Source of the DNA: a virus
Strand: one strand, 5' to 3'
UHGV virus genome: UHGV-0063983
DNA: 24,510 bases
The notes below the pieces were generated by a model, which worked only from the letters and a program-made list of their open reading frames with translations, had not been told where the DNA came from and did not search any database. How positions within the stretch are numbered: position 1 is the stretch's first letter; each line of letters opens with the position of its first letter. Both the position numbers and the translations under genes were made by a program. Of this stretch, positions 3,088 to 17,022 are shown in pieces.

Positions 3088-3597
3088 ATGTTTGATTACC
3101 AAGTTTCCAAACATCCACATTTTGATGAAGCCTGTCGTGCATTTGCACTGCGCCACAATCTGGTGCAACTGGCAGAACGTGCAGGCATGAATGTGCAGAT
3201 TCTGCGGAACAAGCTGAACCCAGCTCAGCCTCATCTATTAACCGCACCAGAAATCTGGCTGCTTACCGATCTGACTGAAGATTCAACGCTGGTAGATGGT
3301 TTTCTGGCACAGATTCATTGTCTGCCATGTGTACCGATTAATGAGGTGGCAAAAGAGAAACTGCCACATTACGTCATGAGTGCAACCGCAGAGATCGGGC
3401 GTGTTGCTGCAGGTGCGGTATCTGGCGATGTAAAAACCAGTGCAGGTCGTCGTGATGCTATCAGCAGCATTAACTCTGTAACACGACTGATGGCGTTGGC
3501 TGCTGTTTCATTGCAGGCCCGTTTACAGGCTAACCCTGCGATGGCGAGTGCAGTTGATACCGTGACCGGACTCGGTGCTTCATTCGGTTTGCTGTGA
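3088..3597 (+). CDS. cII: 186-type CII lysogeny-establishment activator
   Basis: [49 protein letters not shown]...[25 protein letters not shown] closely matches my recollection of 186 CII; AGAGG ribosome-binding site before the ATG at 3088. Confidence 0.85.
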
Positions 3598-3604
3598 GGT
3601 GCTT

Positions 3605-3901
3605 ATGCTGACGAAAGAACCATCATTTGCATCGCTGCTGGTAAAGCAAAGCCCGGCAATGCACTACGGTCACGGCTGGATCATGGGTGAGGATGGAAAA
3701 CGCTGGCATCCATGTCATTCACAAGATGAATTGCTGTCTGAATTGACCACGAGGAAACGGAGAAAGTCAAAATGTATGCAGCGGAAAGTGAAGTGGTTTA
3801 TCAGTTTTGTTACAGAGGGGAGAGTTATTCAGTACCTGAAGATGATTTGCTCTGTTGTTATCCGTCGTTGTCGGGCGATGGCAGTTACTTTTTCACGCTA
3901 A
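3605..3901 (+). CDS. Hypothetical early protein (position of 186 fil/dhr-type genes); true 3' end uncertain
   Basis: ATG at 3605 preceded by GAGGTG. The N-terminal roughly 55 aa look protein-like; the remainder overlaps the next ORF out of frame and looks like low-complexity read-through. Confidence 0.4.
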   Translation: MLTKEPSFASLLVKQSPAMHYGHGWIMGEDGKRWHPCHSQDELLSELTTRKRRKSKCMQRKVKWFISFVTEGRVIQYLKMICSVVIRRCRAMAVTFSR

Positions 3902-3996
3902 AGGATGGGACGTTTTTACGGGGAGAGCAGGTTAAAGAGATGGTACGAAAAAATGTATCTCCCCTTGAGCGTTACCGTAAGAACAAAGAACGATAG
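3772..3996 (+). CDS. Hypothetical early protein (74 aa)
   Basis: ATG at 3772 preceded by GGAGAAAG; protein-like composition (MYAAESEVVYQFCYRGESYSVPEDDLLCCYPSLSGDGSYFFTLKDGTFLRGEQ...). Confidence 0.5.
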   Translation: MYAAESEVVYQFCYRGESYSVPEDDLLCCYPSLSGDGSYFFTLKDGTFLRGEQVKEMVRKNVSPLERYRKNKER

Positions 3997-4018
3997 GTGC
4001 GTTTGGGGGATATGAAGT

Positions 4019-4360
4019 ATGGCAATTAATGGCGCTGCGGCGACTGTTCCATTAAGCCCCGGAGAACGCCTGAATGGACTTAATCACATTGCGGAATTAA
4101 GGGCGAAAGTATTTGGCCTGAATATTGAGTCAGAGCTTGAGCGGTTTATTAAAGATATGCGTGATCCACGGGATATCAATAACGAACAAAATAAACGGGC
4201 ACTGGCTGCCATATTCTTTATGGCAAAAATTCCAGCTGAACGTCATAGCATCAGCATTAATGAGCTGACCACTGACGAAAAGCGGGAGTTGATTAAAGCA
4301 ATGAATCATTTTCGTGCAGTGGTGAGCTTATTTCCCAGACGGCTAACCATGCCGAATTAA
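4019..4360 (+). CDS. Hypothetical early protein (113 aa)
   Basis: Intact ORF in the early operon, same strand as cII and A; no recognisable motif. Confidence 0.55.
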   Translation: MAINGAAATVPLSPGERLNGLNHIAELRAKVFGLNIESELERFIKDMRDPRDINNEQNKRALAAIFFMAKIPAERHSISINELTTDEKRELIKAMNHFRAVVSLFPRRLTMPN

Positions 4361-4427
4361 CCAACCAATGAAATTAATGGCGTAAACCCGCCGGGCATCC
4401 CTTTATCTAAATTCAGGAGAATTGATT

Positions 4428-4661
4428 ATGCGTAATATTGAAACCCTCTCGACCAAAACCGGACCGGATGACGCAGGGCTTAATATTTTACTGACAGAGG
4501 CTCGTCTGGAAGAACGCCGGGCAAGGGCTGAAGCAATGGCAGCTCGCCTTGATAGCCTGGCGTGTCATATCACATCCCGCCAGCTAACCCACGTCGAAGC
4601 GGCAGAACTGCTTCGTGTGACTGCTGAAGCAATCCAGAACGAAGCGCAGGAGATCCACTAA
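4428..4661 (+). CDS. Hypothetical early protein (77 aa)
   Basis: ATG at 4428 preceded by CAGGAGA; stop overlaps the start of the next gene (TAATG). Confidence 0.55.
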   Translation: MRNIETLSTKTGPDDAGLNILLTEARLEERRARAEAMAARLDSLACHITSRQLTHVEAAELLRVTAEAIQNEAQEIH

Positions 4662-4888
4662 TGGCTGATGCAATGGATCTCGTACAGCAGCGCGTTGAAG
4701 AAGAACGCCAACGCCATATCCGTGCTGCCCGTGCCAAAACGCCGGGCGTGTCCCGCGTGCTTTGCATTGAGTGTGAAGCGCCAATTCCGCCAGCACGCCG
4801 CCGTGCCATTCCGGGTGTGCAGCTTTGCATTACCTGTCAGGAAATCGCAGAGCTGAAAGGCAAACATTACAACGGAGGTGCTGTATGA
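4661..4888 (+). CDS. TraR/DksA-family C4 zinc-finger protein
   Basis: CIECEAPIP...CITCQ: a CxxC-N17-CxxC zinc finger in a 75-aa protein, as in the phage TraR/DksA family; translationally coupled to dam (ATGA overlap). Confidence 0.75.
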   Translation: MADAMDLVQQRVEEERQRHIRAARAKTPGVSRVLCIECEAPIPPARRRAIPGVQLCITCQEIAELKGKHYNGGAV

Positions 4889-5742
4889 GCACCATCCTGA
4901 AATGGGCGGGAAATAAAACTGCCATAATGTCCGAACTGAAAAAACATCTTCCTGCTGGCCCGCGACTGGTTGAACCTTTCGCGGGTTCCTGTGCTGTGAT
5001 GATGGAGACGGATTATCCCAGCTATCTGGTTGCGGATATTAATCCTGATTTAATCAACCTCTATAAAAAGGTTGCCGCTGATTGTGAATCGTTTATATCT
5101 CGCGCCAGAGTTTTATTTGAGATCGCAAACAGGGAGGTGGCTTATTACAACATAAGGCAGGAGTTTAATTACTCAACTGAAATTACTGATTTCATGAAAG
5201 CGGTATATTTCCTGTATCTCAATCGTCACGGTTACCGTGGTTTATGTCGCTATAACAAGAGCGGGCATTTCAACATTCCCTACGGTAATTATAAAAATCC
5301 GTATTTCCCTGAAAAAGAAATTCGCGCATTTGCAGAAAAGGCCCAGCGAGCAACGTTTATCTGCGCCAGCTTTGATGAAACGCTGGCGATGTTGAAGGCG
5401 GGGGATGTGGTGTATTGCGATCCGCCGTATGACGGTACGTTTTCCGGCTATCACACTGACGGCTTCACTGAAGATGACCAGTATCACCTGGCATCTGTTC
5501 TTGAACATCGGTCATCAGAAGGACATCCGGTCATTGTTTCTAACAGTGACACATCCCTGATCCGTTCGCTGTATCGCAATTTTACTCACCACTACATCAA
5601 GGCAAAACGCAGCATCGGTGTGGCAGCTGGCGAGGGTAAATCAGCAACAGAAATCATTGCTGTTTCCGGGCCGCGCTGCTGGGTGGGATTTGATTATTCG
5701 CGTGGCGTGGATAGTTCTGCCGTGTACGGAGTACGTGCATGA
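4885..5742 (+). CDS. dam: Dam-like DNA N6-adenine methyltransferase (orphan, phage-encoded)
   Basis: N-terminal ILKWAGNK...EPFAGSCAV (AdoMet-binding) and catalytic DPPY ([10 protein letters not shown]). GGAGG before the ATG at 4885; stop overlaps the gene A start (ATGA). Confidence 0.85.
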
Positions 5743-8153
5743 GTCATGCCGATATGAACAACTGCTGCGGCTTTAACGAAGCTGCCGCATCGTTCTCATG
5801 GAACAGCCCGAAAAAGGCCATTAACCCTTATCTGGACCCGGTGGAAGTTGCGCCGGTTTCTACGCTTTCAAACCTGATCACTCTGTACGCTGCCGATAAC
5901 GAGCAGGAACAGCTGCGCCGTGAGGCGCTGAGTGATCAGGTCTGGGAGCGTTATTTCTTTAATGAATCCCGTGATCCTGTCCAGCGCGAAATGGAACAGG
6001 ATAAGCTCATTAGTCGGGCAAAGCTGGCGCATGAGCAGCAGCGTTTTAATCCGGATATGGTCATTCTGGCGGACGTCAACGCCCAGCCTTCCCATATCAG
6101 CAAGCCGCTGATGCAACGTATTGAATACTTCAGCAGCCTGGGCAGGCCAAAGTCTTATTCCCGCTATTTACGTGAGACGATTAAGCCATGTCTGGAACGA
6201 CTGGAGCATGTACGCGACAGTCAGCTATCTGCATCTTTTCGCTTTATGGCAAGCCATGAAGGGCTGGACGGCCTGCTGATCCTGCCTGAAATGAGTCAGG
6301 ATCAGGTGAAACGCCTGTCCACCCTGGTAGCTGCGCATATGAGTATGTGCCTTGATGCCGCTTGTGGCGATTTGTATGCCACCGATGACGTTAAGCCAGA
6401 AGAAATCCGCAATACATGGGAAAGGGTGGCAGCGGAAACCCTGCGTCTGGATGTCATCCCGCCTGCGTTTGAGCAACTCCGTCGGAAAAGAAACCGCCGT
6501 AAACCCGTGCCCTATGAACTCATTCCGGGTTCGCTGGCGCGTATGTTGTGCGCCGACTGGTGGTATCGGAAATTATGGAAGATGCGTTGCGAATGGCGGG
6601 AAGAGCAGTTGCGTGCAGTCTGCCTTGTCAGCAAAAAAGCATCTCCTTATGTCAGCTATGAAGCCGTGATGCATAAACGTGAGCAGCGCCGTAAGTCGCT
6701 GGAGTTTTTCCGTTCTCATGAACTGGTGAACGAAGACGGCGACACGCTGGACATGGAGGATGTGGTAAACGCCAGCAGCAGCAACCCAGCGCATCGCCGC
6801 AATGAGATGATGGCCTGTGTTAAAGGTCTGGAGCTTATCGCGGAAATGCGCGGTGACTGCGCCGTTTTCTACACCATCACTTGTCCGTCACGTTTCCATT
6901 CCACGCTAAATAACGGCAGGCCCAACCCAACCTGGACAAATGCGACGGTAAGACAAAGCAGTGATTATCTGGTCGGCATGTTTGCTGCATTTCGTAAGGC
7001 GATGCACAAAGCCGGATTGCGGTGGTATGGCGTGCGGGTGGCTGAGCCGCATCATGACGGTACAGTTCACTGGCACCTGTTGTGTTTTATGCGCAAAAAA
7101 GACCGCCGCACCATCACTGCATTACTGCGTAAGTTTGCCATCCGTGAAGACCGCGAGGAGCTGGGCAATAACACTGGGCCGCGCTTTAAGTCTGAGTTGA
7201 TTAACCCGCGCAAAGGTACGCCAACAAGCTACATCGCGAAATACATCAGTAAGAACATTGACGGGCGTGGTCTGGCTGGCGAGATCAGCAAGGAAACGGG
7301 GAAATCCCTGCGTGATAATGCTGAATACGTTAATGCCTGGGCGTCTCTGCATCGTGTTCAGCAATTCCGCTTCTTTGGCATTCCGGGGCGTCAGGCTTAC
7401 CGTGAACTGCGATTGCTGGCTGGTCAGGCGGCAAGGCAACAGGGGGACAAAAAAGCAGGTGCGCCGGTACTGGATAACCCGCGCCTTGATGCCATTCTGG
7501 CTGCTGCTGATGCTGGTTGTTTTGCCACCTACATCATGAAGCAGGGTGGCGTACTGGTTCCCCGCAAATATCACCTCATCAGAACTGCTTATGAAATCAA
7601 CGAAGAGCCGACCGCCTATGGCGATCACGGCATTCGTATTTATGGCATCTGGTCACCTATTGCAGAGGGCAAGATCTGCACTCATGCCGTGAAGTGGAAA
7701 ATGGTTCGTAAGGCCGTTGACGTTCAGGAGGCGGCAGCCGACCAGGGCGCTTGCGCCCCTTGGACTCGTGGCAATAACTGTCCCCTTGCTGAAAATTTGA
7801 ACCAGCAGGAGAAAGATAAATCAGCTGATGGGGACACCAGAACGGACATTACCTGCATGGATGACAAGGAGTTGCACGATTATCTGCACAGTTTGAGCAA
7901 AAAAGAGCGCCGGGAACTGGCTGCAAGGTTACGCCTGGCTAAGCCGAAACGGCGTAAAGACTACAAACAGCGAATTACAGATCATCAGCGACAACAGCTC
8001 GTCTATGAGCTGAATTCCAGAGGATTTGATGGTAGCGAGAAAGAGGTCGATTTACTCCTTCGCGGCGGCAGTATTCCGTCAGGAGCAGGCCTGCGTATCT
8101 TCTATCGGAACCAGCGTTTGCAGGAAGATGACAAGTGGCGGAACCTGTATTAA
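5739..8153 (+). CDS. A: P2/186 gene A rolling-circle replication initiator
   Basis: 804 aa, with an HUH-like motif ([15 protein letters not shown]) and a catalytic tyrosine pair ([10 protein letters not shown]) typical of P2 gpA-family initiators; sits after the early genes and before the accessory region. Confidence 0.9.
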
Positions 8154-8245
8154 TTACGCGGGTTAACAATTCGTGCTCTTAATAATACCAGGCATATCAG
8201 GCTGATGAACGTAAAAAAACGTTTTACATCAGTAAGATTATTATA

Positions 8246-8265
8246 TACTGTAAATATAAACAGTG
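8246..8265. promoter_or_regulatory. LexA (SOS) box overlapping a putative promoter -10
   Basis: taCTGTaaatataaACAGtg fits the CTGT-N8-ACAG LexA consensus with an AT-rich spacer; overlaps a TATACT -10-like hexamer (8244-8249), about 40 nt upstream of the small ORF at 8307. Confidence 0.6.
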
Positions 8266-8306
8266 GTTATGTATACAGTGTTGCTTGTGGTGTCATAGGA
8301 GGAAAG

Positions 8307-8495
8307 ATGCAGGACTATTTTTTGGAGTCTTTGAAGCTCCAGCGCATTGATTTTTTTCTTAAGCTTGTAGCGGCCAGTGAGTGTAGTGATGAAGAGAAGA
8401 GACTGGCTATCCAGTGGGTTTCTGAGCTGACTGACGAGTTGATGGCGAAAATTCGTAACTATGAATACAGCCGTACAATGGACGCTACCAGCTAG
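8307..8495 (+). CDS. Small hypothetical protein (62 aa) downstream of the LexA box; possible N-terminal part of a Tum-like antirepressor
   Basis: ATG at 8307 preceded by AGGAGG. The ORF-track start at 8205 is an upstream extension that would overlap the LexA box. Confidence 0.4.
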   Translation: MQDYFLESLKLQRIDFFLKLVAASECSDEEKRLAIQWVSELTDELMAKIRNYEYSRTMDATS

Positions 8496-8505
8496 GGGAA
8501 AACCT

Positions 8506-8691
8506 ATGCGCATTGAAACAATGATCGATAAAGAGCAGTAAATTAGCTAGGCGCTGTTAGAAGCCGTTGAATCCGAGCTTTACCGCAACCTGCAGCCTAT
8601 CTATCCAAAGACAGCAATCCGCATTCGTAAAGGTTCGGCAAACGGCGTTGAGCTGAGCGGCTTAAAACTTGATGAAGACAAAAGCGAGTGA
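8506..8691 (+). pseudogene. DinI-family gene disrupted by two in-frame stops
   Basis: Frame from ATG 8506 reads MRIETMIDKEQ*IS*ALLEAVESELYRNLQPIYPKTAIRIRKGSANGVELSGLKLDEDKSE. The MRIE start and the ELxRxxQ / VxxR pattern resemble DinI (MRIEVTIAKT...AGELSRRIQYAF...VSVRY...). TAA and TAG interrupt at codons 12 and 15. Confidence 0.5.
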
Positions 8692-8758
8692 TGGAAATCA
8701 TGCAGCATGTTTGGGAAGATGAGAGCTGCTTTTAAATATCGATTTAGGGGAAAATCTC

Positions 8759-8784
8759 AACCTCATGCAGTATCGCATGAGGTT
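8759..8784 (+). terminator. Perfect 10-bp hairpin, possible terminator or regulatory element between the SOS module and the cargo operon
   Basis: aacctcatgc-agtatc-gcatgaggtt: exact inverted repeat with a 6-nt loop; the downstream T-run is weak (cattta). Confidence 0.3.
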
Positions 8785-8951
8785 CATTTAGGCGAAATTT
8801 GTGGGAATTTTCTACAAGTTTATGAGCGAATAATTCATTTTTGATGTGTTAATTTCTTAACAATTTGGGCTTTAATTCTTGTAAAGCAAGACATAACGTT
8901 TATGATTGATAAATATAAAAAATCTGAATAGGCAGGAAAGGAGTTTAACTC

Positions 8952-9467
8952 ATGCCTGGGTTAGAAAATGCACAGCAAAATCAAGTTGATGAAATCGTTC
9001 CAGCAATGCAAATCGCATTGGTCGAAGAAGATATAGAACAACCCATCGCTGCCGAATACCTATACAGCCAGCATATAAGTGCGCTTGTGCCACAATGCCC
9101 TCCTGCCGAAGCGACAGAGTGCGATAGAGAATGCTGGCGTTTTACACTGAATCCTATAAGTCACAACTGCTTTTGGCCTCCAAAAAGAAGATCACCGCAG
9201 CGAATTGCTTCCGACGATGCGGAGGAGTGTTCTATGTGGGCGTTGTCTATGTATGAATCAGAGGCCCAGGCTACAAGAGCCTATACCATGTTAGCGAAGA
9301 AGATGAAAAATATCAGAAAAGCTATTGGTGATCACCTTGCTGTGGGTTCAGTAACCTGTAGTGATGGTAAATGTATGCCTGCTAGCAGAACCGGTCACTT
9401 TGATTTTCATCCTTATGTGGATGCGGATTTCGTTAACGGGTTCCAAGTAATACGAGCATTACCATGA
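8952..9467 (+). CDS. Hypothetical protein, 171 aa (first gene of the accessory operon)
   Basis: ATG at 8952 preceded by AGGAGT at good spacing; AT-rich coding region; no motif I recognise; stop overlaps the next gene start (ATGA). Confidence 0.65.
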   Translation: MPGLENAQQNQVDEIVPAMQIALVEEDIEQPIAAEYLYSQHISALVPQCPPAEATECDRECWRFTLNPISHNCFWPPKRRSPQRIASDDAEECSMWALSMYESEAQATRAYTMLAKKMKNIRKAIGDHLAVGSVTCSDGKCMPASRTGHFDFHPYVDADFVNGFQVIRALP

Positions 9468-10555
9468 TAAAATTAGATGCTAGAAGAATAAATGCGTCAA
9501 CTGTCGGAGATTATTCTTGGTACTCTGACCTCGTATATTTCGATGGTCCCCTAATTTGCTTGTTTAGAGGAAGCGGATATAAAGATGCTCTTTATGTCTG
9601 GCTTGATAATTCGGAGCGTGCCAATCGTTGGTGCTTGATTCCAGTATCAAGATCTACTTTGGACTCTTATCTTAACCAAAGAATGAGTTTAAGGGAGATT
9701 ATACAATCGAGCGAATATACATATATCTGCGATCATTTTGCGAAAACCGGAAGGAAGCACTACAACATTTTGCACGTTGATAGTTTTCCTGAGGAGTATA
9801 TGCCTGATGAAGATTCATATTTGTATGAAGAAATATGTACTGATGATGCATTGCTGTTGAAGCAGGAGCGCACCTCCAGTTATATGCTTGGATTAGATAA
9901 TCAGTTGTTTATAAATGATTTATCTGTAATACCAAAAATTTTCGAACAGCTCTATTCTTTCCATTACGGATTGGCTCATTTAGGACGGTTGTCGATTAGA
10001 AATACCATGTTGCGTCTGATGGGGAATTGGACGGGTGGAATATCAGCAGTAAATATATTTTCAGGGTTGAAAAATGTTATTCCTGTTTTGCATCGACCAG
10101 AGATTAGCTCTCTCCAATACAATTCACCGGGGCATATTGAGTTAAATTTACTTCCTGATTTGGCTCAAAGTGTTCAAGATGCATCTATTCGTGTGAAAAG
10201 TGAGCTAGTTTATGACCGTCTGGAGAAAATGTATAAAAATACATATGCATACTTCAAGGATAATGGGCTGTCAGGCTTTGATGAAGACGGCGGCATTGAA
10301 ATTAGAAATATCGATAGTGATACCACCGAAAACCTACGTAAACGCGTAAGAATATTTTTTAGATGTTTGGGGTGGTCAAGTTATCAAGCTCAGTTTGATC
10401 TGATCGGTGCCCATCCTCTACAACAATTACGTGCTGTGATGGCCTACTACAGGCGGCTCAAAATCTTGCGTGAATACATTGTCTCCGAGAAGCTTTTTGT
10501 TGGTCAGTCTCGGGTGTTACAGCAGCCACAAATTGCTCTGCCTCCTGAGGATTAG
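9464..10555 (+). CDS. Hypothetical protein, 363 aa (second gene of the accessory operon)
   Basis: Long intact ORF, translationally coupled to the upstream gene; AT-rich; no Walker A or other obvious nuclease or ATPase motif found by eye. Confidence 0.7.
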   Translation: MIKLDARRINASTVGDYSWYSDLVYFDGPLICLFRGSGYKDALYVWLDNSERANRWCLIPVSRSTLDSYLNQRMSLREIIQSSEYTYICDHFAKTGRKHYNILHVDSFPEEYMPDEDSYLYEEICTDDALLLKQERTSSYMLGLDNQLFINDLSVIPKIFEQLYSFHYGLAHLGRLSIRNTMLRLMGNWTGGISAVNIFSGLKNVIPVLHRPEISSLQYNSPGHIELNLLPDLAQSVQDASIRVKSELVYDRLEKMYKNTYAYFKDNGLSGFDEDGGIEIRNIDSDTTENLRKRVRIFFRCLGWSSYQAQFDLIGAHPLQQLRAVMAYYRRLKILREYIVSEKLFVGQSRVLQQPQIALPPED

Positions 10556-10680
10556 ATTCTGCGTTATGCTGCATGAATCCGCATGATCGTTTGAGGATCG
10601 TTCTAGATGAGGCCCGTCAGCAATGGCGGGCTTTTGCTAATGTCATGCTGGCGCATGAAAACCACTACATAAAGCGGGCA

Positions 10681-10699
10681 GGCGTGGCGGGGATACGAG
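10681..10699. other. Putative cos (cohesive end) site of the P2/186 type
   Basis: GGCGTGGCGGGGATACGAG: the first 13 nt match my recollection of the 186 cos sequence (GGCGTGGCGGGGAAAGCAT; P2 is GGCGAGGCGGGGAAAGCAC). It lies in a 254-bp non-coding gap on the cos-proximal side of Q. Confidence 0.35.
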
Positions 10700-10809
10700 C
10701 GCGCGCTCATGGTTGAATTAATGAAATTATGGTGTTAAATAGGCTAGCTTTTTAAGTCGTGAATATTCAATTTTTCAACTCATTTTTTTCATAGGGAGGA
10801 GCAATTGAC

Positions 10810-11508
10810 ATGGTTATGTTAGTGGATGACTGTCCACGATGTGGATCACAAAAAATAGCGTTTGATGTTAATGGGCTGAATTGCACTAGGGTTTACAATG
10901 CATTGGGCGGGGGTAAAACATACGAATACGAGGTCTATTGTGTTTGCCGAGAGTGTCATAAAACGACAATGTTTCTTTGCAGACCTTTAACGAAAAATAA
11001 AACTTTAGATGGCTATAATTGGGAAAGTGGAATATTCGGCTTAAAGGAAGTTGCAGAGGTTGTTAGGCCTATATCACCGGCAGACTTAGCAGTAGAGGAG
11101 CCGCCAGAGTTCTTACCTGAGCATATCAATAGTGCATATGAGGAAGGGGCGAAATGTTTGGCTATTGGTTGTTATAATGCAGCAGCAACCATGTTTAGGC
11201 TTTGCCTTGATTATGCAACAAAAGGACTTCTTCCTGATGGGGAGCAAGGGCCTGCGCAAAAAATAAGGAGAAGCCTAGGGTTAAGAATGGATTGGTTATT
11301 TGATAATCATCTATTGCCTGAAGCTTTAAGGGAACTAGCTGAATGCGTTAAAGATGACGGAAATGATGGAGCGCATGAAGGTATTTTGGATAAAGCTGCT
11401 GCTGAGGATCTTGAAGATTTTACCTATCTTTTTTTAGAACGGCTTTACACTGAACCTCAACGCCTTATCGAAGCCAAGACAAGGCGTGAACAAAGAAGAA
11501 ACAAATAA
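10810..11508 (+). CDS. Zinc-ribbon protein with C-terminal DUF4145-like helical domain (232 aa)
   Basis: N-terminal CPRCGSQK...CVCRECHK (CxxC...CxxC zinc ribbon). C-terminal region (AAATMFRLCLDYATKGLL...LRELAECVKDDGNDGAHEGILD) resembles the [RK]-x2-GN-x2-AH signature I associate with DUF4145. GGGAGGA ribosome-binding site; AT-rich. Confidence 0.65.
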   Translation: MVMLVDDCPRCGSQKIAFDVNGLNCTRVYNALGGGKTYEYEVYCVCRECHKTTMFLCRPLTKNKTLDGYNWESGIFGLKEVAEVVRPISPADLAVEEPPEFLPEHINSAYEEGAKCLAIGCYNAAATMFRLCLDYATKGLLPDGEQGPAQKIRRSLGLRMDWLFDNHLLPEALRELAECVKDDGNDGAHEGILDKAAAEDLEDFTYLFLERLYTEPQRLIEAKTRREQRRNK

Positions 11509-11516
11509 GTTCGGAA

Positions 11517-12554
11517 TTATTCTTCTGAAAGAATATAGGGCGTAAATTTAATCACTTCTTCGCCCAGCCAGTCGTTCAGCTCTTGTAGCCTTTTTTGCAA
11601 GGGCGTTAATTCATTACGTACAAATACGCGACTGGCCTTCTCCACATCCCCAAAACCCCCAACATTATTCGGCAAAATTCCCATCATCTGGGGCGGTACG
11701 CGGTGCGCCGCCATCATGTCATCACGGCTGACGTTCTTGATGTTCAGAAATTCATCCTTCGCTGCGACTTCTGACAACGGGATAATCTGAAGTCCGTCTT
11801 TTTTACCATTAGGCGAGTACATAAACAGATTGCGGAAGTTACCCGGACCTTTGGCGCTTTTCATTGCGTTGCGGAGGTTGTTCACATCCTCCTGGTTCTG
11901 CGCGGCATCGGTCATATACATGATGAAGCCAGCATGACTGCCATTGATGTAATATTTACGGCGGAACAGCGTGGCGGACTCGTTGAGCAGGGCTGACGGA
12001 ATGGCAGAAAGATAACCGGGCAGGCCGTAGATCTCCTGGTTGATGTCCGGTTCTATCAGATGAAAGATGCAGCCTTTCGTGAACTGATACGGCTGCGTGG
12101 TCATGCCGTATTGCACAAACCAGTAGGTATCCAGGTCTAAACCGCGTCGGGTGTATTTTGCCAGCGCAGGTTCAAGGGTGATAACTTCACCGAAGCGGTT
12201 CGTGCGTTTCTCCAGGTAGGCGTTACCAAATACCAGATAGTCCTGCACAAAACGTGAAAAAGCCTGCTGGCTGAGCAGCGGGTGAGGGATGTAGGTGCTG
12301 GTCAGAATGTTGCATTTCACCGCAATCGGTGAGCTGTGATGCACGGCGGCGCGGAAGGTTCGCGCCAGTCCGTCGAAACTCACAGGCGGCTCATACCAGC
12401 GATCCATCTGTACGCATTCCACATAGTCCAGCAGTTCACGGCGGTCCAGAACAGGAACGGGATCGCCAAAGCTGAATGCTTCGGCTGAAGTTTGGCTTTT
12501 ATGCTGGATCTGGTTCGTCGACGCAGCGCGGTTCTTCTTACTCTTTCCCATCAA
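11517..12554 (-). CDS. Q: Portal protein (P2 gpQ)
   Basis: 345 aa, immediately downstream of and overlapping (ATGA) the large terminase on the minus strand, matching P2 gene order and gpQ size. Confidence 0.85.
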   Translation of the reverse strand: MMGKSKKNRAASTNQIQHKSQTSAEAFSFGDPVPVLDRRELLDYVECVQMDRWYEPPVSFDGLARTFRAAVHHSSPIAVKCNILTSTYIPHPLLSQQAFSRFVQDYLVFGNAYLEKRTNRFGEVITLEPALAKYTRRGLDLDTYWFVQYGMTTQPYQFTKGCIFHLIEPDINQEIYGLPGYLSAIPSALLNESATLFRRKYYINGSHAGFIMYMTDAAQNQEDVNNLRNAMKSAKGPGNFRNLFMYSPNGKKDGLQIIPLSEVAAKDEFLNIKNVSRDDMMAAHRVPPQMMGILPNNVGGFGDVEKASRVFVRNELTPLQKRLQELNDWLGEEVIKFTPYILSEE

Positions 12555-14317
12555 AAAATCTCCACAATATTGCTGGTATTGGCGGACTCGCCCTGCAGCG
12601 GTTCGTTAAACAGTGCGTGCATTGTTGCCCAGGCTAGATCGGCATGGCTGGCTTCTTCACTGCGGCTGGCTTCATAGGTCGGGCGGTTGCCACTGGCGGT
12701 GGTGGCGCGACGGATTGCCATAAATGACTGCGCGATGTCGGTATGCCCGGCGTCAAACTCCAGACGGCGGTGGCTGATAATGTCGTAGGCCTTGAGTACC
12801 AGGGCGTTTTTAACGTTGGGGTTGTAGACAAACTCCCGGACGGCAGGAAAGAACGCTTTCACGTTCTCATAAACACCGTGACCGACACCTGTCGAGTCGA
12901 TGCCGATATAGGTCACGTTGTACTGTTCGGTCAGTTTTTTGATGGCGTCAGCCTGGGCGCGGAAGTCCATCCCGCGCCACTGGTGACGCTCAAGAATGCG
13001 AAACTTACCGCCAGGCACGGCTGGCGGTGCCACCACCACGCATCCGGCGCTGTCGCCGTTCTGCGTACCTTTTGCCGGGTCATAACCGATCCACACTTCG
13101 CGCCAGCCAAACGGGCGCAGGGCCAGAGCATGAAAGTCGGTCCAGACTTCCCAACTGTCCACCATGCACGCCTGCAGCTCGCTGAGCGGAAACACGGACG
13201 CGAGATCGTCCACAAACTCGCACATCAGCAGGTTCTGGTATTCGTCCGGGCTGTACTCCATGCGCAACTGGTCAAGGTCGAACAGGTTACAGCCGCCGCG
13301 CACCGCATCTTCCACGGTGACTATCTGGCGGTATTGCCCGTCTGCGCACAGCAGGCCGGGGGCCAGATTGCTGTGGGACAGGTCGATGTCCACCTTATCG
13401 GCTTTGTTGCGCCCACGGTTGAACAGCGCACCGGACCAGAACGGATAAGCACTGTGTGTCAGACTGGATGGCGTGGAAAAATAGGTCTGTCGCCATTTCT
13501 TGTGAATAGCCATACCGGAAGCCACTTTGCGCAGCTCCTGGAATTTCGGTATCCAGAAATATTCATCCAGATACAGGTTGCCGTGGTAACTCTGGGCCGT
13601 GCGGGCATTGGTGCCGAGGAAGTACAGCGTGGCCCCGTTAGGAAGCACCATCGGATCGCCTTTCAGCTCCACCTCCACTTCTTTGGCGAAGTCGATGATG
13701 TACTGCTTAAAGACGTGGGCCTGTGCCTTGCTGGCGGAAAGGAAAATCTGGTTACGCCCGGTTAGCAGGGCGTCAATCAGGGCTTCACGGGCAAAATAGA
13801 AGGTCGCGCCGATCTGGCGTGACTTCAGCAGGTTGCGGATGCGGTTGGTTTTTCCGGCTTCCCACCAGTGGCGCTGGTAGTTGAACATGGAGGAATGGAA
13901 GATTTCTTCCAGCTTCTCAATCTGTTCATCGGTGAAAACGTTCTTTTCCGGCTGACGGCGCGGGCCTTTGTTGCGGTTGGCGACGTTAGGGTTTAAGTCG
14001 GCTTCGTTGCCGCCGTTGTTAAACTTGCCGATCCGCGCATGGCGCTCCGACTGGCGCGCCAGCAGGTCAATCTCTTTGAAATCTTTCCCTTCTTTGTGCT
14101 CCTTCATAATGAGCTGGCAGTAGCGTGCGGCGGTGGTGAGCTGCATCTGATCCAGCGGCCCATAGTCACTCCACTTGTCGCGTTTTTTCCAGCTGTGAAC
14201 GGTTGCAACTTTCTCGCCCAGCATTTCAGCAATGCGGGCTACGCGGTATCCCTGAAAGTACAGCAGCATGGCCTGCCGACGGGGATCGAGATCTGCGGGT
14301 GTCAGTGTGGTGTTCAT
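12551..14317 (-). CDS. P: Terminase large (ATPase) subunit (P2 gpP)
   Basis: 588 aa, divergent from the capsid operon; size and position match P2 gpP. Confidence 0.85.
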   Translation of the reverse strand: MNTTLTPADLDPRRQAMLLYFQGYRVARIAEMLGEKVATVHSWKKRDKWSDYGPLDQMQLTTAARYCQLIMKEHKEGKDFKEIDLLARQSERHARIGKFNNGGNEADLNPNVANRNKGPRRQPEKNVFTDEQIEKLEEIFHSSMFNYQRHWWEAGKTNRIRNLLKSRQIGATFYFAREALIDALLTGRNQIFLSASKAQAHVFKQYIIDFAKEVEVELKGDPMVLPNGATLYFLGTNARTAQSYHGNLYLDEYFWIPKFQELRKVASGMAIHKKWRQTYFSTPSSLTHSAYPFWSGALFNRGRNKADKVDIDLSHSNLAPGLLCADGQYRQIVTVEDAVRGGCNLFDLDQLRMEYSPDEYQNLLMCEFVDDLASVFPLSELQACMVDSWEVWTDFHALALRPFGWREVWIGYDPAKGTQNGDSAGCVVVAPPAVPGGKFRILERHQWRGMDFRAQADAIKKLTEQYNVTYIGIDSTGVGHGVYENVKAFFPAVREFVYNPNVKNALVLKAYDIISHRRLEFDAGHTDIAQSFMAIRRATTASGNRPTYEASRSEEASHADLAWATMHALFNEPLQGESANTSNIVEIF

Positions 14318-14363
14318 GGCACAAACCTACAGCCTTGAATGAAGGCTTTCCCCGCCTGCGGTT

Positions 14364-14381
14364 TGTGTGGTTGTCGGTACA
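14364..14381. promoter_or_regulatory. Late-promoter activator site (TGT-N12-ACA) in the divergent P/O control region
   Basis: TGTgtggttgtcggtACA has exactly 12 nt between TGT and ACA, the motif bound by Ogr/B/Delta-family late activators in P2-like phages; it is the only such site between the P and O starts. Confidence 0.5.
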
Positions 14382-14459
14382 AATACCGCGCATTGTTTCA
14401 CTGCCCCTATCACCGCAACCATAAGGCTCCAGTAAGTTTTTTCTAACGGAGCACGGCTC

Positions 14460-15293
14460 ATGACAGTGAAAGCAAAGCGTTTTCGCATCGGGGTGGAAGG
14501 TGCCACCACCGACGGACGCGAAATCCAGCGTGAATGGCTGGAACAGATGGCAGCCAGCTATAACCCGGCGGTGTATACCGCGCTGATTAACCTTGAGCAC
14601 ATCAAGTCTTATCTGCCGGACAGCACCTTTAACCGCTACGGCAAGGTGACGGCGCTGTTTGCTGAAGAAATCACGGAAGGTCCGCTGGCAGGCAAGATGG
14701 CGCTGTATGCTGACGTTGAGCCAACGGAGTCCCTGGTGGAACTGGTGAAAAAAGGCCAGAAATTATTCACCTCTATGGAAGTCAGCCCGAAGTTCGCTGA
14801 TACGGGCAAAGCCTACCTGGTCGGCCTGGCTGCCACTGATGACCCTGCCAGTCTGGGTACGGAAATGCTGACATTCAGCGCCAGTGCAGCCCATAACCCG
14901 TTGGCAAACCGCAAGCAGAATCCTGCCAATCTCTTTACCGCTGCAGAGGAAACGGTGATCGAACTGGAAGAAATCCAGGACGACAAACCGTCCCTGTTTG
15001 CCCGCGTCACGGCGCTGTTTACCAAAAAAGAGCAGTCCGATGACGCCCGGTTCTCTGATGTGCATAAGGCCGTGGAGCTGGTCGCCACTGAGCAGCAAAA
15101 CCTGAGCGCACGCACCGAAAAATCCCTGTCTGAGCAGGAAGAACGCCTGTCTGAGCTGGAGACTGCCCTGCAGGCACAGCAGACCGCCTTTAACGAACTG
15201 GTGAATAAGCTGAGTCATGAAGACAGCCGCCAGGACTACCGCCAGCGTGCAACAGGCGGTAACGCCCCCGCTGACACTCTGACCAATTGCTGA
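14460..15293 (+). CDS. O: Capsid scaffolding protein (P2 gpO)
   Basis: 277 aa, first gene of the rightward capsid operon; acidic and coiled-coil-rich C-terminal half. Confidence 0.85.
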   Translation: MTVKAKRFRIGVEGATTDGREIQREWLEQMAASYNPAVYTALINLEHIKSYLPDSTFNRYGKVTALFAEEITEGPLAGKMALYADVEPTESLVELVKKGQKLFTSMEVSPKFADTGKAYLVGLAATDDPASLGTEMLTFSASAAHNPLANRKQNPANLFTAAEETVIELEEIQDDKPSLFARVTALFTKKEQSDDARFSDVHKAVELVATEQQNLSARTEKSLSEQEERLSELETALQAQQTAFNELVNKLSHEDSRQDYRQRATGGNAPADTLTNC

Positions 15294-15309
15294 TGGAGCA
15301 CAAAACCTG

Positions 15310-16368
15310 ATGAAGAAGAATACCCGCTTTGCTTTTAACGCTTACCTGCAGCAGCTGGCGCGTCTGAACGGTGTGGCAGTTGAAGAACTGTCCAGCAAGT
15401 TCACTGTGGAGCCGTCTGTGCAGCAGACGCTGGAAGACCAGATCCAGCAGTCCGCCGCTTTCCTGACGCTGATTAATGTCACCCCAGTGACTGAGCAGTC
15501 CGGTCAGCTGCTGGGGCTGGGTGTTGGCAGCACCATTGCCGGAACCACTGACACCACCGCGAAAGAGCGTGAACCTGTCGATCCGACGCTGATGGTCGAT
15601 GTGGAATATAAATGCGAGCAGACCAACTTTGACACGGTGCTGACCTACGCGAAGCTGGACCTGTGGGCGAAGTTTCAGGATTTCCAGGTGCGTATCCGTG
15701 ACGCCATCGTGAAACGTCAGGCACTGGACCGCATCATGATCGGCTTTAACGGCGTGAAGCGTGCGAAAAACTCCAACCGCAGCGAAAACCCGCTGCTGCA
15801 GGATGTTAACAAAGGCTGGTTGCAGAAAATCCGTGAAGATGCACCGGATCACGTCATGGGCAGCACCACCACGGGCGGCGAAACCACTCCGGGTGCGGTG
15901 AAAGTCGGGAAAGGTGGCGAATATGCCAACCTGGACGCTGTGGTGATGGATGCCGTCAATGAGCTTATCGACGTGGTTTACCAGGACGATGACGATCTGG
16001 TGGTGATTTGCGGTCGTGAACTGCTGTCTGACAAGTATTTCCCGCTGGTCAACAAAGAGCAGGAGAACAGTGAAAAACTGGCTGCAGATATGATCATCAG
16101 CCAGAAACGCATGGGTGGCCTGCAGGCCGTGCGTGCGCCGTTCTTCCCGCCGAATGCGCTGCTGATCACCCGTCTGGATAACCTGTCCATCTACTGGCAG
16201 GAAGACACCCGCCGCCGTTCAGTTATCGACAACCCGAAACGTGACCGGATTGAAAACTTTGAATCCGTTAACGAAGCCTATGTGGTTGAGGACTACCGCT
16301 GCGCCGCACTGGTGGAAAACATCCAGATTGGTGACTTCAGCGCCGCCGCAGCAGAAACCGGAGCGTAA
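15310..16368 (+). CDS. N: Major capsid protein (P2 gpN)
   Basis: 352 aa following O; size and position match gpN. Confidence 0.85.
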   Translation: MKKNTRFAFNAYLQQLARLNGVAVEELSSKFTVEPSVQQTLEDQIQQSAAFLTLINVTPVTEQSGQLLGLGVGSTIAGTTDTTAKEREPVDPTLMVDVEYKCEQTNFDTVLTYAKLDLWAKFQDFQVRIRDAIVKRQALDRIMIGFNGVKRAKNSNRSENPLLQDVNKGWLQKIREDAPDHVMGSTTTGGETTPGAVKVGKGGEYANLDAVVMDAVNELIDVVYQDDDDLVVICGRELLSDKYFPLVNKEQENSEKLAADMIISQKRMGGLQAVRAPFFPPNALLITRLDNLSIYWQEDTRRRSVIDNPKRDRIENFESVNEAYVVEDYRCAALVENIQIGDFSAAAAETGA

Positions 16369-16371
16369 TTC

Positions 16372-17022
16372 ATGAGCCTGAGTCCCGCACGGCAGCATCG
16401 CCTGCGCGTTCAGGCTGAACAGGCCGCCCGCGAGGGTGGCAGTGTTCGCCACGCGTCGGGCTATGACCTGATGCTGCTGCAACTGGCGGAAGACCGCCGC
16501 CGTCTCAAGGGCGTTCAGTCCACGGTCAAAAAAGCGGAAATCAAGGTGGAGCTGCTGCCGAAGTACGCCGCCTGGGCGGAGGGCGTCCTGGCTGCCGGAG
16601 GCGCTCAACAGGATGACGTGCTGATGTACGTGATGCTGTGGCGCATTGATGCCGGAGATTATGCCGGGGCGCTGGAGATCGGGCGTCATGCCCTGCGTCA
16701 TGGCTGGGTGATGCCGCTGGGTAACCGCAACGTGCAGACCGTGCTGGCAGAGGAAATGGCAGATGCAGCGCAGAGCGCAATGCTTGCCGCCACCGACTTT
16801 GATGCCGATCTGTTGCTGCAGACGCTGGAGCTGACAGACGGTCTGGATATGCCGGACCAGTCACGGGCGCGTCTGCATAAAGCGATTGGCGCTGTCCTGA
16901 GTGAAAGCAATCCGGCTTCCGCCCTTAATCATCTCAACCATGCGTTACAGCTCGATCCCCGCTGTGGCGTGAAAAAAGACAAACAGCAGCTGGAGCGCAG
17001 ACTGCGCAATGACAGCCGCTGA
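16372..17022 (+). CDS. M: Terminase small / endonuclease subunit (P2 gpM)
   Basis: 216 aa; the VMLWRIDAGDYAGALEIGRHAL segment resembles P2 gpM (MLWRLDTGDIAGALEIARYAL as I recall it). Confidence 0.8.
   Translation: MSLSPARQHRLRVQAEQAAREGGSVRHASGYDLMLLQLAEDRRRLKGVQSTVKKAEIKVELLPKYAAWAEGVLAAGGAQQDDVLMYVMLWRIDAGDYAGALEIGRHALRHGWVMPLGNRNVQTVLAEEMADAAQSAMLAATDFDADLLLQTLELTDGLDMPDQSRARLHKAIGAVLSESNPASALNHLNHALQLDPRCGVKKDKQQLERRLRNDSR

Follow-up and report, generated by a model that had tools for sequence, protein, structure and literature searches.

PD-T4-10 was reported by Vassallo et al. (2022, Nature Microbiology; PMC9519451), who recovered it from Escherichia coli ECOR65 in a functional selection against phage T4. 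The system consists of two overlapping ORFs without predicted function. In ECOR65, PD-T4-10B acts as a toxin that PD-T4-10A fully neutralises; no deletion of A could be made, and deletion of B abolished resistance to T4 (PMC9519451). The pair confers abortive-infection (Abi) protection against T-even phages, and the protection measured was strong (PMC9519451). HHpred searches by the original authors gave no match above 20% probability for either protein (PMC9519451). Our survey of the literature on PD-T4-10 and on DUF6575 turned up, besides the original paper and its preprint, a single 2024 survey, which lists the function as unknown, and no later mechanistic work.

The closest described relatives in genetic organisation are type II toxin-antitoxin (TA) Abi systems such as RnlAB and the TA-like systems PD-T4-9 (CmdTAC) and PD-lambda-2 from the same screen, where the antitoxin gene precedes the toxin gene and overlaps with it. 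As in PD-T4-10, a protein expressed together with the toxin neutralises it, and defence proceeds by abortive infection. In genomic position, the nearest counterparts are tin and old of phage P2, which occupy the slot between gpA and the portal gene and serve the same role as interchangeable, prophage-borne anti-phage cargo. Cassettes of this P2 hotspot were reportedly also described by Rousset et al. in 2022. The content of the gpA–portal slot is almost exclusively defence cassettes, tin and old among them (PMC9519451).

The DNA analysed here (the window) is a stretch of 24,510 nucleotides from the virus genome UHGV-0063983. It carries a two-gene operon, which an earlier preliminary description, made from the sequence alone, had placed in the A-to-Q accessory hotspot of a P2-like prophage. 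The features of the operon and its surroundings are as follows.

5739–8153: gpA, left flank (PF05840, E 8e-128)
8879–8906, plus strand: sigma-70-like promoter candidate, TTGTAA-16-TATGAT, about 46 nt upstream of A (consensus scan)
8934–8943, plus strand: ribosome-binding site AGGAAAGGAG upstream of A (read directly from the sequence)
8940–8943, plus strand: Shine-Dalgarno GGAG, 8 nt 5′ of the A ATG
8952–9467, plus strand: ORF of gene A, PD-T4-10A antitoxin, 171 aa, ATG start (PADLOC PDLC04023)
9464–9467, plus strand: ATGA overlap of the A stop and the B start, translational coupling (read from the sequence)
9464–10555, plus strand: ORF of gene B, PD-T4-10B toxin, 363 aa, ATG start (PADLOC PDLC04024)
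9464–9856, plus strand: B N-terminal beta-rich domain, DUF6575-like, residues 1–131, acidic, pI 4.7 (AF2)
9857–10498, plus strand: B C-terminal, mainly helical domain, residues 132–345, basic, pI 8.9 (AF2)
about 10609–10640, plus strand: terminator-like GC-rich hairpin followed by a U-run, 54 nt 3′ of the B stop
10810–11508: third, independent ORF in the A-to-Q slot, missed by the preliminary description
11517–14317, minus strand: portal and large terminase, right flank (Pfam scan)

Both proteins of the operon were identified as components of PD-T4-10 when we ran the PADLOC and HMM searches that the preliminary description had proposed as a check. Protein A matched PD-T4-10_A with E 9.8e-76 and 250.5 bits, its residues 27–171 covering positions 3–148 of the 148-position model, and protein B matched PD-T4-10_B with E 2e-172 and 571.5 bits, its residues 1–351 covering positions 1–351 of 353. 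The gene order is that of PD-T4-10, with A upstream of B, adjacent, on the same strand and with overlapping ORFs. The two genes together span 1,604 bp, the same as the ORF span in ECOR65 (QOYX01000006, 196254–197857), and identity to the ECOR65 proteins RCO36089.1 and RCO36088.1 is judged by HMM scores and equal length. ORF order, span, host species and P2-like prophage setting are all shared with the ECOR65 system. We detected no substantive difference from it; the downstream neighbour in the slot varies among strains.

The operon is therefore the already published PD-T4-10 toxin-antitoxin Abi system in its usual P2-like prophage slot. The preliminary description had guessed at an anti-phage defence cassette, and this guess is upheld by the PADLOC matches to an experimentally validated system; its view of the pair as uncharacterised and novel does not survive the same matches. 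PD-T4-10 was discovered, given its name and validated in 2022 and has its own PADLOC models, so the discovery claim falls. A genuinely novel, undescribed defence system might have been read from the lack of any recognisable functional domain and from the RefSeq labels of the two proteins (hypothetical or DUF6575), but the strong full-length matches of both to curated models and the published validation (PMC9519451) leave that reading with practically no probability. We consider it very likely that the window operon is a PD-T4-10 copy carried as cargo in the gpA–portal hotspot, where it would shield the population of lysogens against T-even phages through abortive infection.

The layout of the operon agrees with this assignment. 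The two ORFs of 171 and 363 aa and their ATGA overlap lie on the plus strand exactly where they had first been placed, and the expectation of a small partner coupled to a larger effector is matched by the antitoxin A and the toxin B. The longest open frame of the segment has 372 codons, against a mean of 91 and a maximum of 182 in 1,000 shuffles of the segment, so the A and B ORFs lie far beyond chance. Both are also conserved as proteins across many genomes. The same 4-nt overlap of A and B is present at six further loci (L003, L005, L006, L007, L034 and L052). The promoter candidate matches the consensus at 9 of 12 positions; since the whole scan returned fewer sites than shuffled sequences did, it is weak evidence taken alone. 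It falls inside the 101 bp upstream of the ORFs that were enough for the ECOR65 clone to function, as judged by comparing the cloned region with the ORF coordinates. For the hairpin downstream of B, the predicted RNA fold has a dG of −22.3 kcal/mol and a z of −2.94 against shuffles. The composition of the operon is foreign to its surroundings, as had been proposed from its AT-richness: GC content is 41% in the operon against 51–57% in the gpA, portal and terminase flanks (0.413 versus 0.529 for gpA, 0.513 for the portal gene and 0.569 for the terminase gene, with 0.563 for the late genes), and GC3 is 0.37 versus 0.57.

With gpA on one side and the portal and terminase genes on the other, the operon lies in the A-to-Q slot of a P2-like prophage, where it had initially been placed. 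We compared this slot among related prophages, and the cassette swapping that had been anticipated was borne out. Between an identical A–B pair and the portal gene we found at least nine kinds of second cassette, all in P2-like prophages:

second cassette 1: a GmrSD_N protein
second cassette 2: an AIPR protein
second cassette 3: an AAA_13 ATPase
second cassette 4: a 324-aa protein with DUF4325
second cassette 5: a three-gene set
second cassette 6: a Zn-ribbon-DUF4145 protein, the arrangement of the window
second cassette 7: a 208-aa reverse-strand gene
second cassette 8: a DUF4062 protein
second cassette 9: a 416-aa ATPase-like protein

The pair occupied the gpA–portal slot on 11 of the 17 IMG/VR contigs that carry B, and the phages with this arrangement include divergent members of the P2 family whose gpA is 32–37% identical. 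These observations show that the P2 A–Q slot is a set of independently exchangeable sub-cassettes. The proteins of tin, old and other cassettes of the P2 hotspot are unrelated to A and B. The cargo status of the pair is shown by its low GC content, its rarity in E. coli, the variety of second cassettes beside it and its recurrence in the same slot of divergent P2-family phages.

Within E. coli the cassette is rare, being present in 13 of 5,426 complete genomes, where it is always chromosomal and in P2-like prophages. The assembly GCA_000351905.1 (KB732923.1) is 100% identical to positions 3464–16555 of the window. In one sequence collection the exact A protein occurs on 524 contigs, and the index of that collection lists the exact B protein in 105 of its blocks. 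At 90% identity, the homologues of B in Gamma- and Betaproteobacteria fall into 81 clusters. In an exhaustive profile search with B, 1,957 cluster representatives (clustering at 50% identity) reached E ≤ 1e-3, and 1,146 of them E ≤ 1e-10.

An A-like ORF of 116–171 aa lay directly 5′ of B at every full-length locus that we examined (about 35 loci, down to 24% identity). It was found at 15 of 15 bacterial loci, at 3 of 3 loci with a distant B (27–30% identical; HMM E 3e-25 to 3e-35) and at 17 of 17 viral loci, in 16 cases by HMM and at L052 by motifs. The overlap with B was usually 4 nt, and distant A–B pairs were likewise recognised by the PADLOC PD-T4-10 models. Because an A-like ORF accompanies every full-length B, the two genes form an obligate two-gene module. 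An apparent confinement of A to Enterobacterales was rejected as an artefact of word-based searching and of gene callers that shortened A to 72–73 aa.

Protein A consists of a conserved core of about 140 aa preceded by an acidic N-terminal tail (residues 1–35, charge −8.5), which is specific to the Enterobacterales versions. Among 30 diverse members, down to 21% identity, R63, C93, S99, G139 and H149 are invariant. Nearly invariant in the same 30 members are C49-P-P (C49 in at least 90%), F74, P76, P82, R84, G126 and G148-x-F150, and the recurring motifs are CPP, W/Y-x-LS and GHF. Searches of Pfam, NCBIfam, PHROGs and the PDB, including broadened profiles, gave no match for A, no enzyme family and no detectable family of homologues. 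No DNA-binding domain of the HTH, RHH, AbrB or Phd type was found in Pfam, NCBIfam or PHROGs searches of 20 members at E values up to 5. An AF2 model of A alone, built on a shallow alignment of 13 sequences, had a pLDDT of 35 and was unusable; at that low confidence it places C93 in a helix and H149 56 residues later, after two short strands. A zinc finger was considered and is not supported, as only C93 and H149 are invariant while C61, C141 and H153 vary. A papain- or NlpC/P60-like Cys–His arrangement found no HMM support and is speculation.

For B, the AF2 model is confident (pLDDT 90.4, pTM 0.88) and resolves the two domains listed above, the beta-rich one spanning residues of about 1–145 in the model and the mainly helical one about 150–340, with a beta hairpin at residues 213–229 within the C-terminal domain. 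The C-terminal domain carries the motifs QLYSFHYG, WxGG(I/F)S, Y(N/A)SPG and YYRRL. Hydropathy analysis detected no transmembrane segment, and B is predicted to be soluble. Conserved polar residues of the close family include D22, D48, R55, R63, Y112, Q162, Y164, H167, Y168, H210, R211, S221, R323, Y328, Y329, R330 and R331. Across the superfamily, P29, W46, W56, L76, Y112, P114, Y164, G192 and S221-P222-G223 are kept in at least 90% of members. No catalytic motif is kept at that breadth; what remains is S221-P-G, Tyr, Trp and Gly residues, R/K323 and R331. The Rx4-6H motif that accompanies the four-helix fold of HEPN proteins is absent from B.

Database searches place B no further than DUF6575. 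Residues 43–116 matched positions 39–115 of 218 in PF20215 with 22.3 bits, below the GA of 26.6 (E 9.7e-5), and this sub-threshold match was the only one in Pfam, NCBIfam and PHROGs. Relatives of B at 94–99.6% identity carry the DUF6575 label in the Pfam precomputation and in RefSeq; as the family has no known function, membership adds no mechanism. When PDB sequences were searched with profiles of A and B, both single-family and broadened ones, nothing significant emerged, and matches to influenza HA2 had E values above 0.1 and were dismissed as chance. Fold searches returned no solved structural analogue of B; a 113-aa stand-alone viral protein is an analogue of its N-terminal domain (TM 0.80). 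The remark in the preliminary description that neither protein has a recognisable motif thus held, with Pfam, NCBIfam, PHROGs, PDB and fold searches yielding nothing beyond DUF6575.

The two domains of B also recur separately. One metagenomic protein, P0236 (401 aa), begins with a region resembling EAD1 (17 bits, sub-threshold), continues with TRADD-like_N (24.1 bits, above GA) and then has the C-terminal domain of B, which is recognised by BLASTP at E 8e-17 and by PADLOC PD-T4-10_B at E 5e-39. Its gene adjoins those of an EAD1-trypsin protein, a type IIG RM enzyme and a Cas4-like nuclease, and the N-terminus of P0236 resembles that of the neighbouring trypsin protein (E 4e-6). In the scheme of Kaur et al. 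(2020, PMC7159879), EAD1 adaptors serve to bring in effector domains, and the architecture of P0236 accordingly puts the B C-terminal domain in the effector position. A second protein, P0228 (263 aa), joins the N-terminal domain of B (E 1e-23) to a CbtA-toxin-like region (21.6 bits, just below GA), and no A-like gene was found beside it. These swaps, each seen in one metagenomic fusion protein and in part identified by domain scores below threshold, suggest that the C-terminal domain is the toxic effector and the N-terminal domain a portable control or sensing module. We infer that the latter could be regulatory, partner-binding or sensing.

The P0236 architecture links B to the EAD1/TRADD-N conflict systems of Kaur, Burroughs, Iyer and Aravind (2020/2021), in which the B C-terminal domain takes the variable effector position in that one metagenomic protein. 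The B of the window differs in having no EAD or TRADD-N adaptor and, compared with NTP-dependent conflict systems, in that its control falls to a dedicated small partner, A, and not to an NTPase core system. The type II TA comparison holds for gene order, since A lies upstream of B and is translationally coupled to it in an arrangement kept at about 35 loci. It departs from that class in that A has no DNA-binding domain, that A and B are unrelated to any known toxin or antitoxin family, and that B, a two-domain protein of 363 aa, is unusually big for such a toxin.

On this basis a course of events can be proposed. A and B, whose genes are arranged for coupled translation, would be produced from one transcript. 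B is toxic and A neutralises it in the ECOR65 system, and the near-identity of the window copy suggests the same here. Neutralisation would most likely occur by direct binding of A to B in a type II-like manner, as the inseparability of the two genes across the whole family suggests. Infection by a T-even phage may then release or activate B, whether because A is lost once the host is shut off or because a phage product intervenes. The basic C-terminal domain of B, under the control of the acidic N-terminal domain, would arrest or kill the cell before phage release, as the domain swaps would have it. As a soluble protein without membrane segments, B probably acts on a macromolecule of the cytoplasm.

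This scheme has to be weighed against other readings of the pair. Invariant Cys, His, Ser and Arg residues are unusual for a simple labile antitoxin, which is why we kept an enzymatic or metal-dependent role of A as a rival. The operon would still be PD-T4-10, but A would be a small Cys/His enzyme, or else a protein that relies on a metal or on redox chemistry, and would neutralise B by catalysis, through type VII-like modification or processing, or would itself sense infection. The five invariant residues together with the CPP, W/Y-x-LS and GHF motifs look more like an active or metal site than a disordered antitoxin, and the lack of an HTH, RHH or AbrB domain points the same way. Yet A resembles no enzyme family in Pfam, NCBIfam, PHROGs, the PDB or the original authors' HHpred searches (PMC9519451), and its conserved Cys and His could be structural or lie at the interface with B. 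We regard this reading as unlikely. A killing mechanism through membrane damage, by pore formation or depolarisation as with many Abi effectors, is more improbable still. It would draw on residues ~189–209 of B (WTGGISAVNIFSGLKNVIPVL), the least confidently modelled and most hydrophobic stretch with the highest hydropathy in the protein, for which the original HHpred searches gave faint matches to PilN, GspL and CLN3 (PMC9519451). However, the Kyte-Doolittle mean over 19 residues peaks at 1.21, short of the value of about 1.6 that usually marks a transmembrane segment; AF2 models these residues within a globular helical domain, and B has neither a signal peptide nor an amphipathic repeat.

The role of the pair in the prophage can also be read differently, as mainly a module for addiction or stabilisation, or a device for superinfection exclusion, with protection against T-even phages as a side effect. 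Its classic toxin-antitoxin genetics (PMC9519451), its constant location on mobile elements or in variable regions and the presence of some homologues outside recognisable prophages (e.g., in Marinobacter at L003, between metabolic genes) would be in keeping with such a role. The company that it keeps speaks for defence, however: the recorded content of the slot is almost exclusively defensive, and its partners are defence-type genes (GmrSD_N, AIPR, AAA_13, DUF4062 and DUF4145). Moreover, once integrated, a prophage can do without plasmid-style post-segregational killing, and the measured protection is strong (PMC9519451). Defence and addiction are compatible roles, and we think it improbable that addiction is the main one. 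Abortive infection with A as antitoxin and B as toxin remains our preferred reading. A bolder version of it is tentative and in our view somewhat doubtful: the B C-terminal domain may be a new class of cytoplasmic effector, with a fold and activity unlike those of characterised toxins and common to about 2,000 A–B Abi clusters and to EAD1/TRADD-N systems, while A, with its invariant Cys93 and His149, may be a dedicated neutraliser working as an enzyme or as the infection sensor instead of a simple labile plug.

New in the present analysis are the pairing of A and B at all of the approximately 35 loci, the presence of at least nine second cassettes, the separate recurrence of the B domains and the invariant residues of A. 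The remaining value of the locus lies in a widespread B superfamily (1,957 clusters at 50% identity) with a confident two-domain model that has no solved analogue, and in an obligate partner A with a conserved Cys and His. The domain swaps offer a concrete hypothesis open to test, in which the C-terminal part of B is the effector and the N-terminal part controls it, and the locus illustrates how the P2 A–Q slot is assembled from sub-cassettes that are exchanged independently of one another.

The slot between gpA and the portal/terminase gene of this P2-like prophage holds the following features besides the PD-T4-10 antitoxin-toxin operon (PD-T4-10A and B):

8205-8495, plus strand, small conserved ORF directly 3′ of gpA, phrog_698
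8507-8735, plus strand, DinI-like gene remnant, disrupted by a frameshift and by an internal stop codon (MRIETMIDKEQ-stop)
about 8761-8783, inverted repeat 3′ of the DinI-like remnant
10565-10600, 36-bp stretch directly 3′ of PD-T4-10B, with sequence matches elsewhere
10810-11508, plus strand, third ORF of the slot, 232 aa, zinc ribbon and DUF4145

The third ORF encodes a protein with an N-terminal CxxC...CxxC zinc ribbon, a DUF4145 domain (PF13643; 30.5 bits, above GA) and a match to phrog_1305 (E 1e-52). PADLOC gave a weak match (E 1.4e-6) to PD-T7-4, described as "Zn finger-HEPN" by Vassallo et al. (PMC9519451). At a coverage of at least 80%, the ORF was found in 43 complete E. coli genomes, LF82 among them, whereas only 13 carried PD-T4-10; it is therefore a cassette independent of PD-T4-10, and probably a second defence gene of the slot. 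The 36-bp stretch recurs, with 92-100% identity, in E. coli genomes lacking the PD-T4-10 cassette and at the right end of the 33,368-bp sequence of phage Cartapus (33285-33320); it may represent a junction conserved in the hotspot or a site of recombination there.

On the gpA side, the small ORF matched phrog_698 over residues 35-96 (E 1e-34), and a 62-aa version of its product is labelled hypothetical in RefSeq (WP_001568678.1). Because all related prophages examined carry this ORF, it belongs to the backbone and not to the cargo, even at a GC content of 40%. In relatives, RefSeq labels the stretch of the DinI-like remnant a frameshifted DinI-like pseudogene (L001, 8843-9036; L002, 9343-9536). 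L001, the sister prophage of E. coli EC20-4B-2, carries the same PD-T4-10 as the window, and its integrase-repressor gap (211-1887) encodes a PD-lambda-1-type DUF4041 protein (Vassallo et al., PMC9519451). This gap is the second P2 defence hotspot; in L002 (strain 200088) it contained a small YdcA-family gene only.

Two single-domain relatives of PD-T4-10B and one distant A-B pair were found at further loci:

L030, 778-3027, P0236, EAD1/TRADD-N joined to the C-terminal domain of B
L029, 1727-2518, P0228, N-terminal domain of B joined to a CbtA-toxin-like domain
L031, 2564-7029, distantly related A-B pair, with a B of about 29% identity

Genes next to P0236 encode an EAD1-trypsin protein, a restriction-modification enzyme of the MmeI type and a Cas4-like nuclease; no A-like gene was found near P0228. 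The L031 pair, directly 5′ of NurA-like and DUF87 (HerA-type ATPase) genes, may form with them a further defence-type neighbourhood.

Public records of B (9464-10555) and of two comparison loci, L003 (Marinobacter) and L005, contained systematic annotation errors. Many B entries are 251 aa long, with the start placed at internal Met113, and the PADLOC model PDLC04025 spans only residues 113-354. Distant A homologues were shortened to 72-73 aa by gene callers, although the ORFs encode 143-167 aa with the conserved N-terminal motifs present. Such shortening masks the wide spread of the A family.
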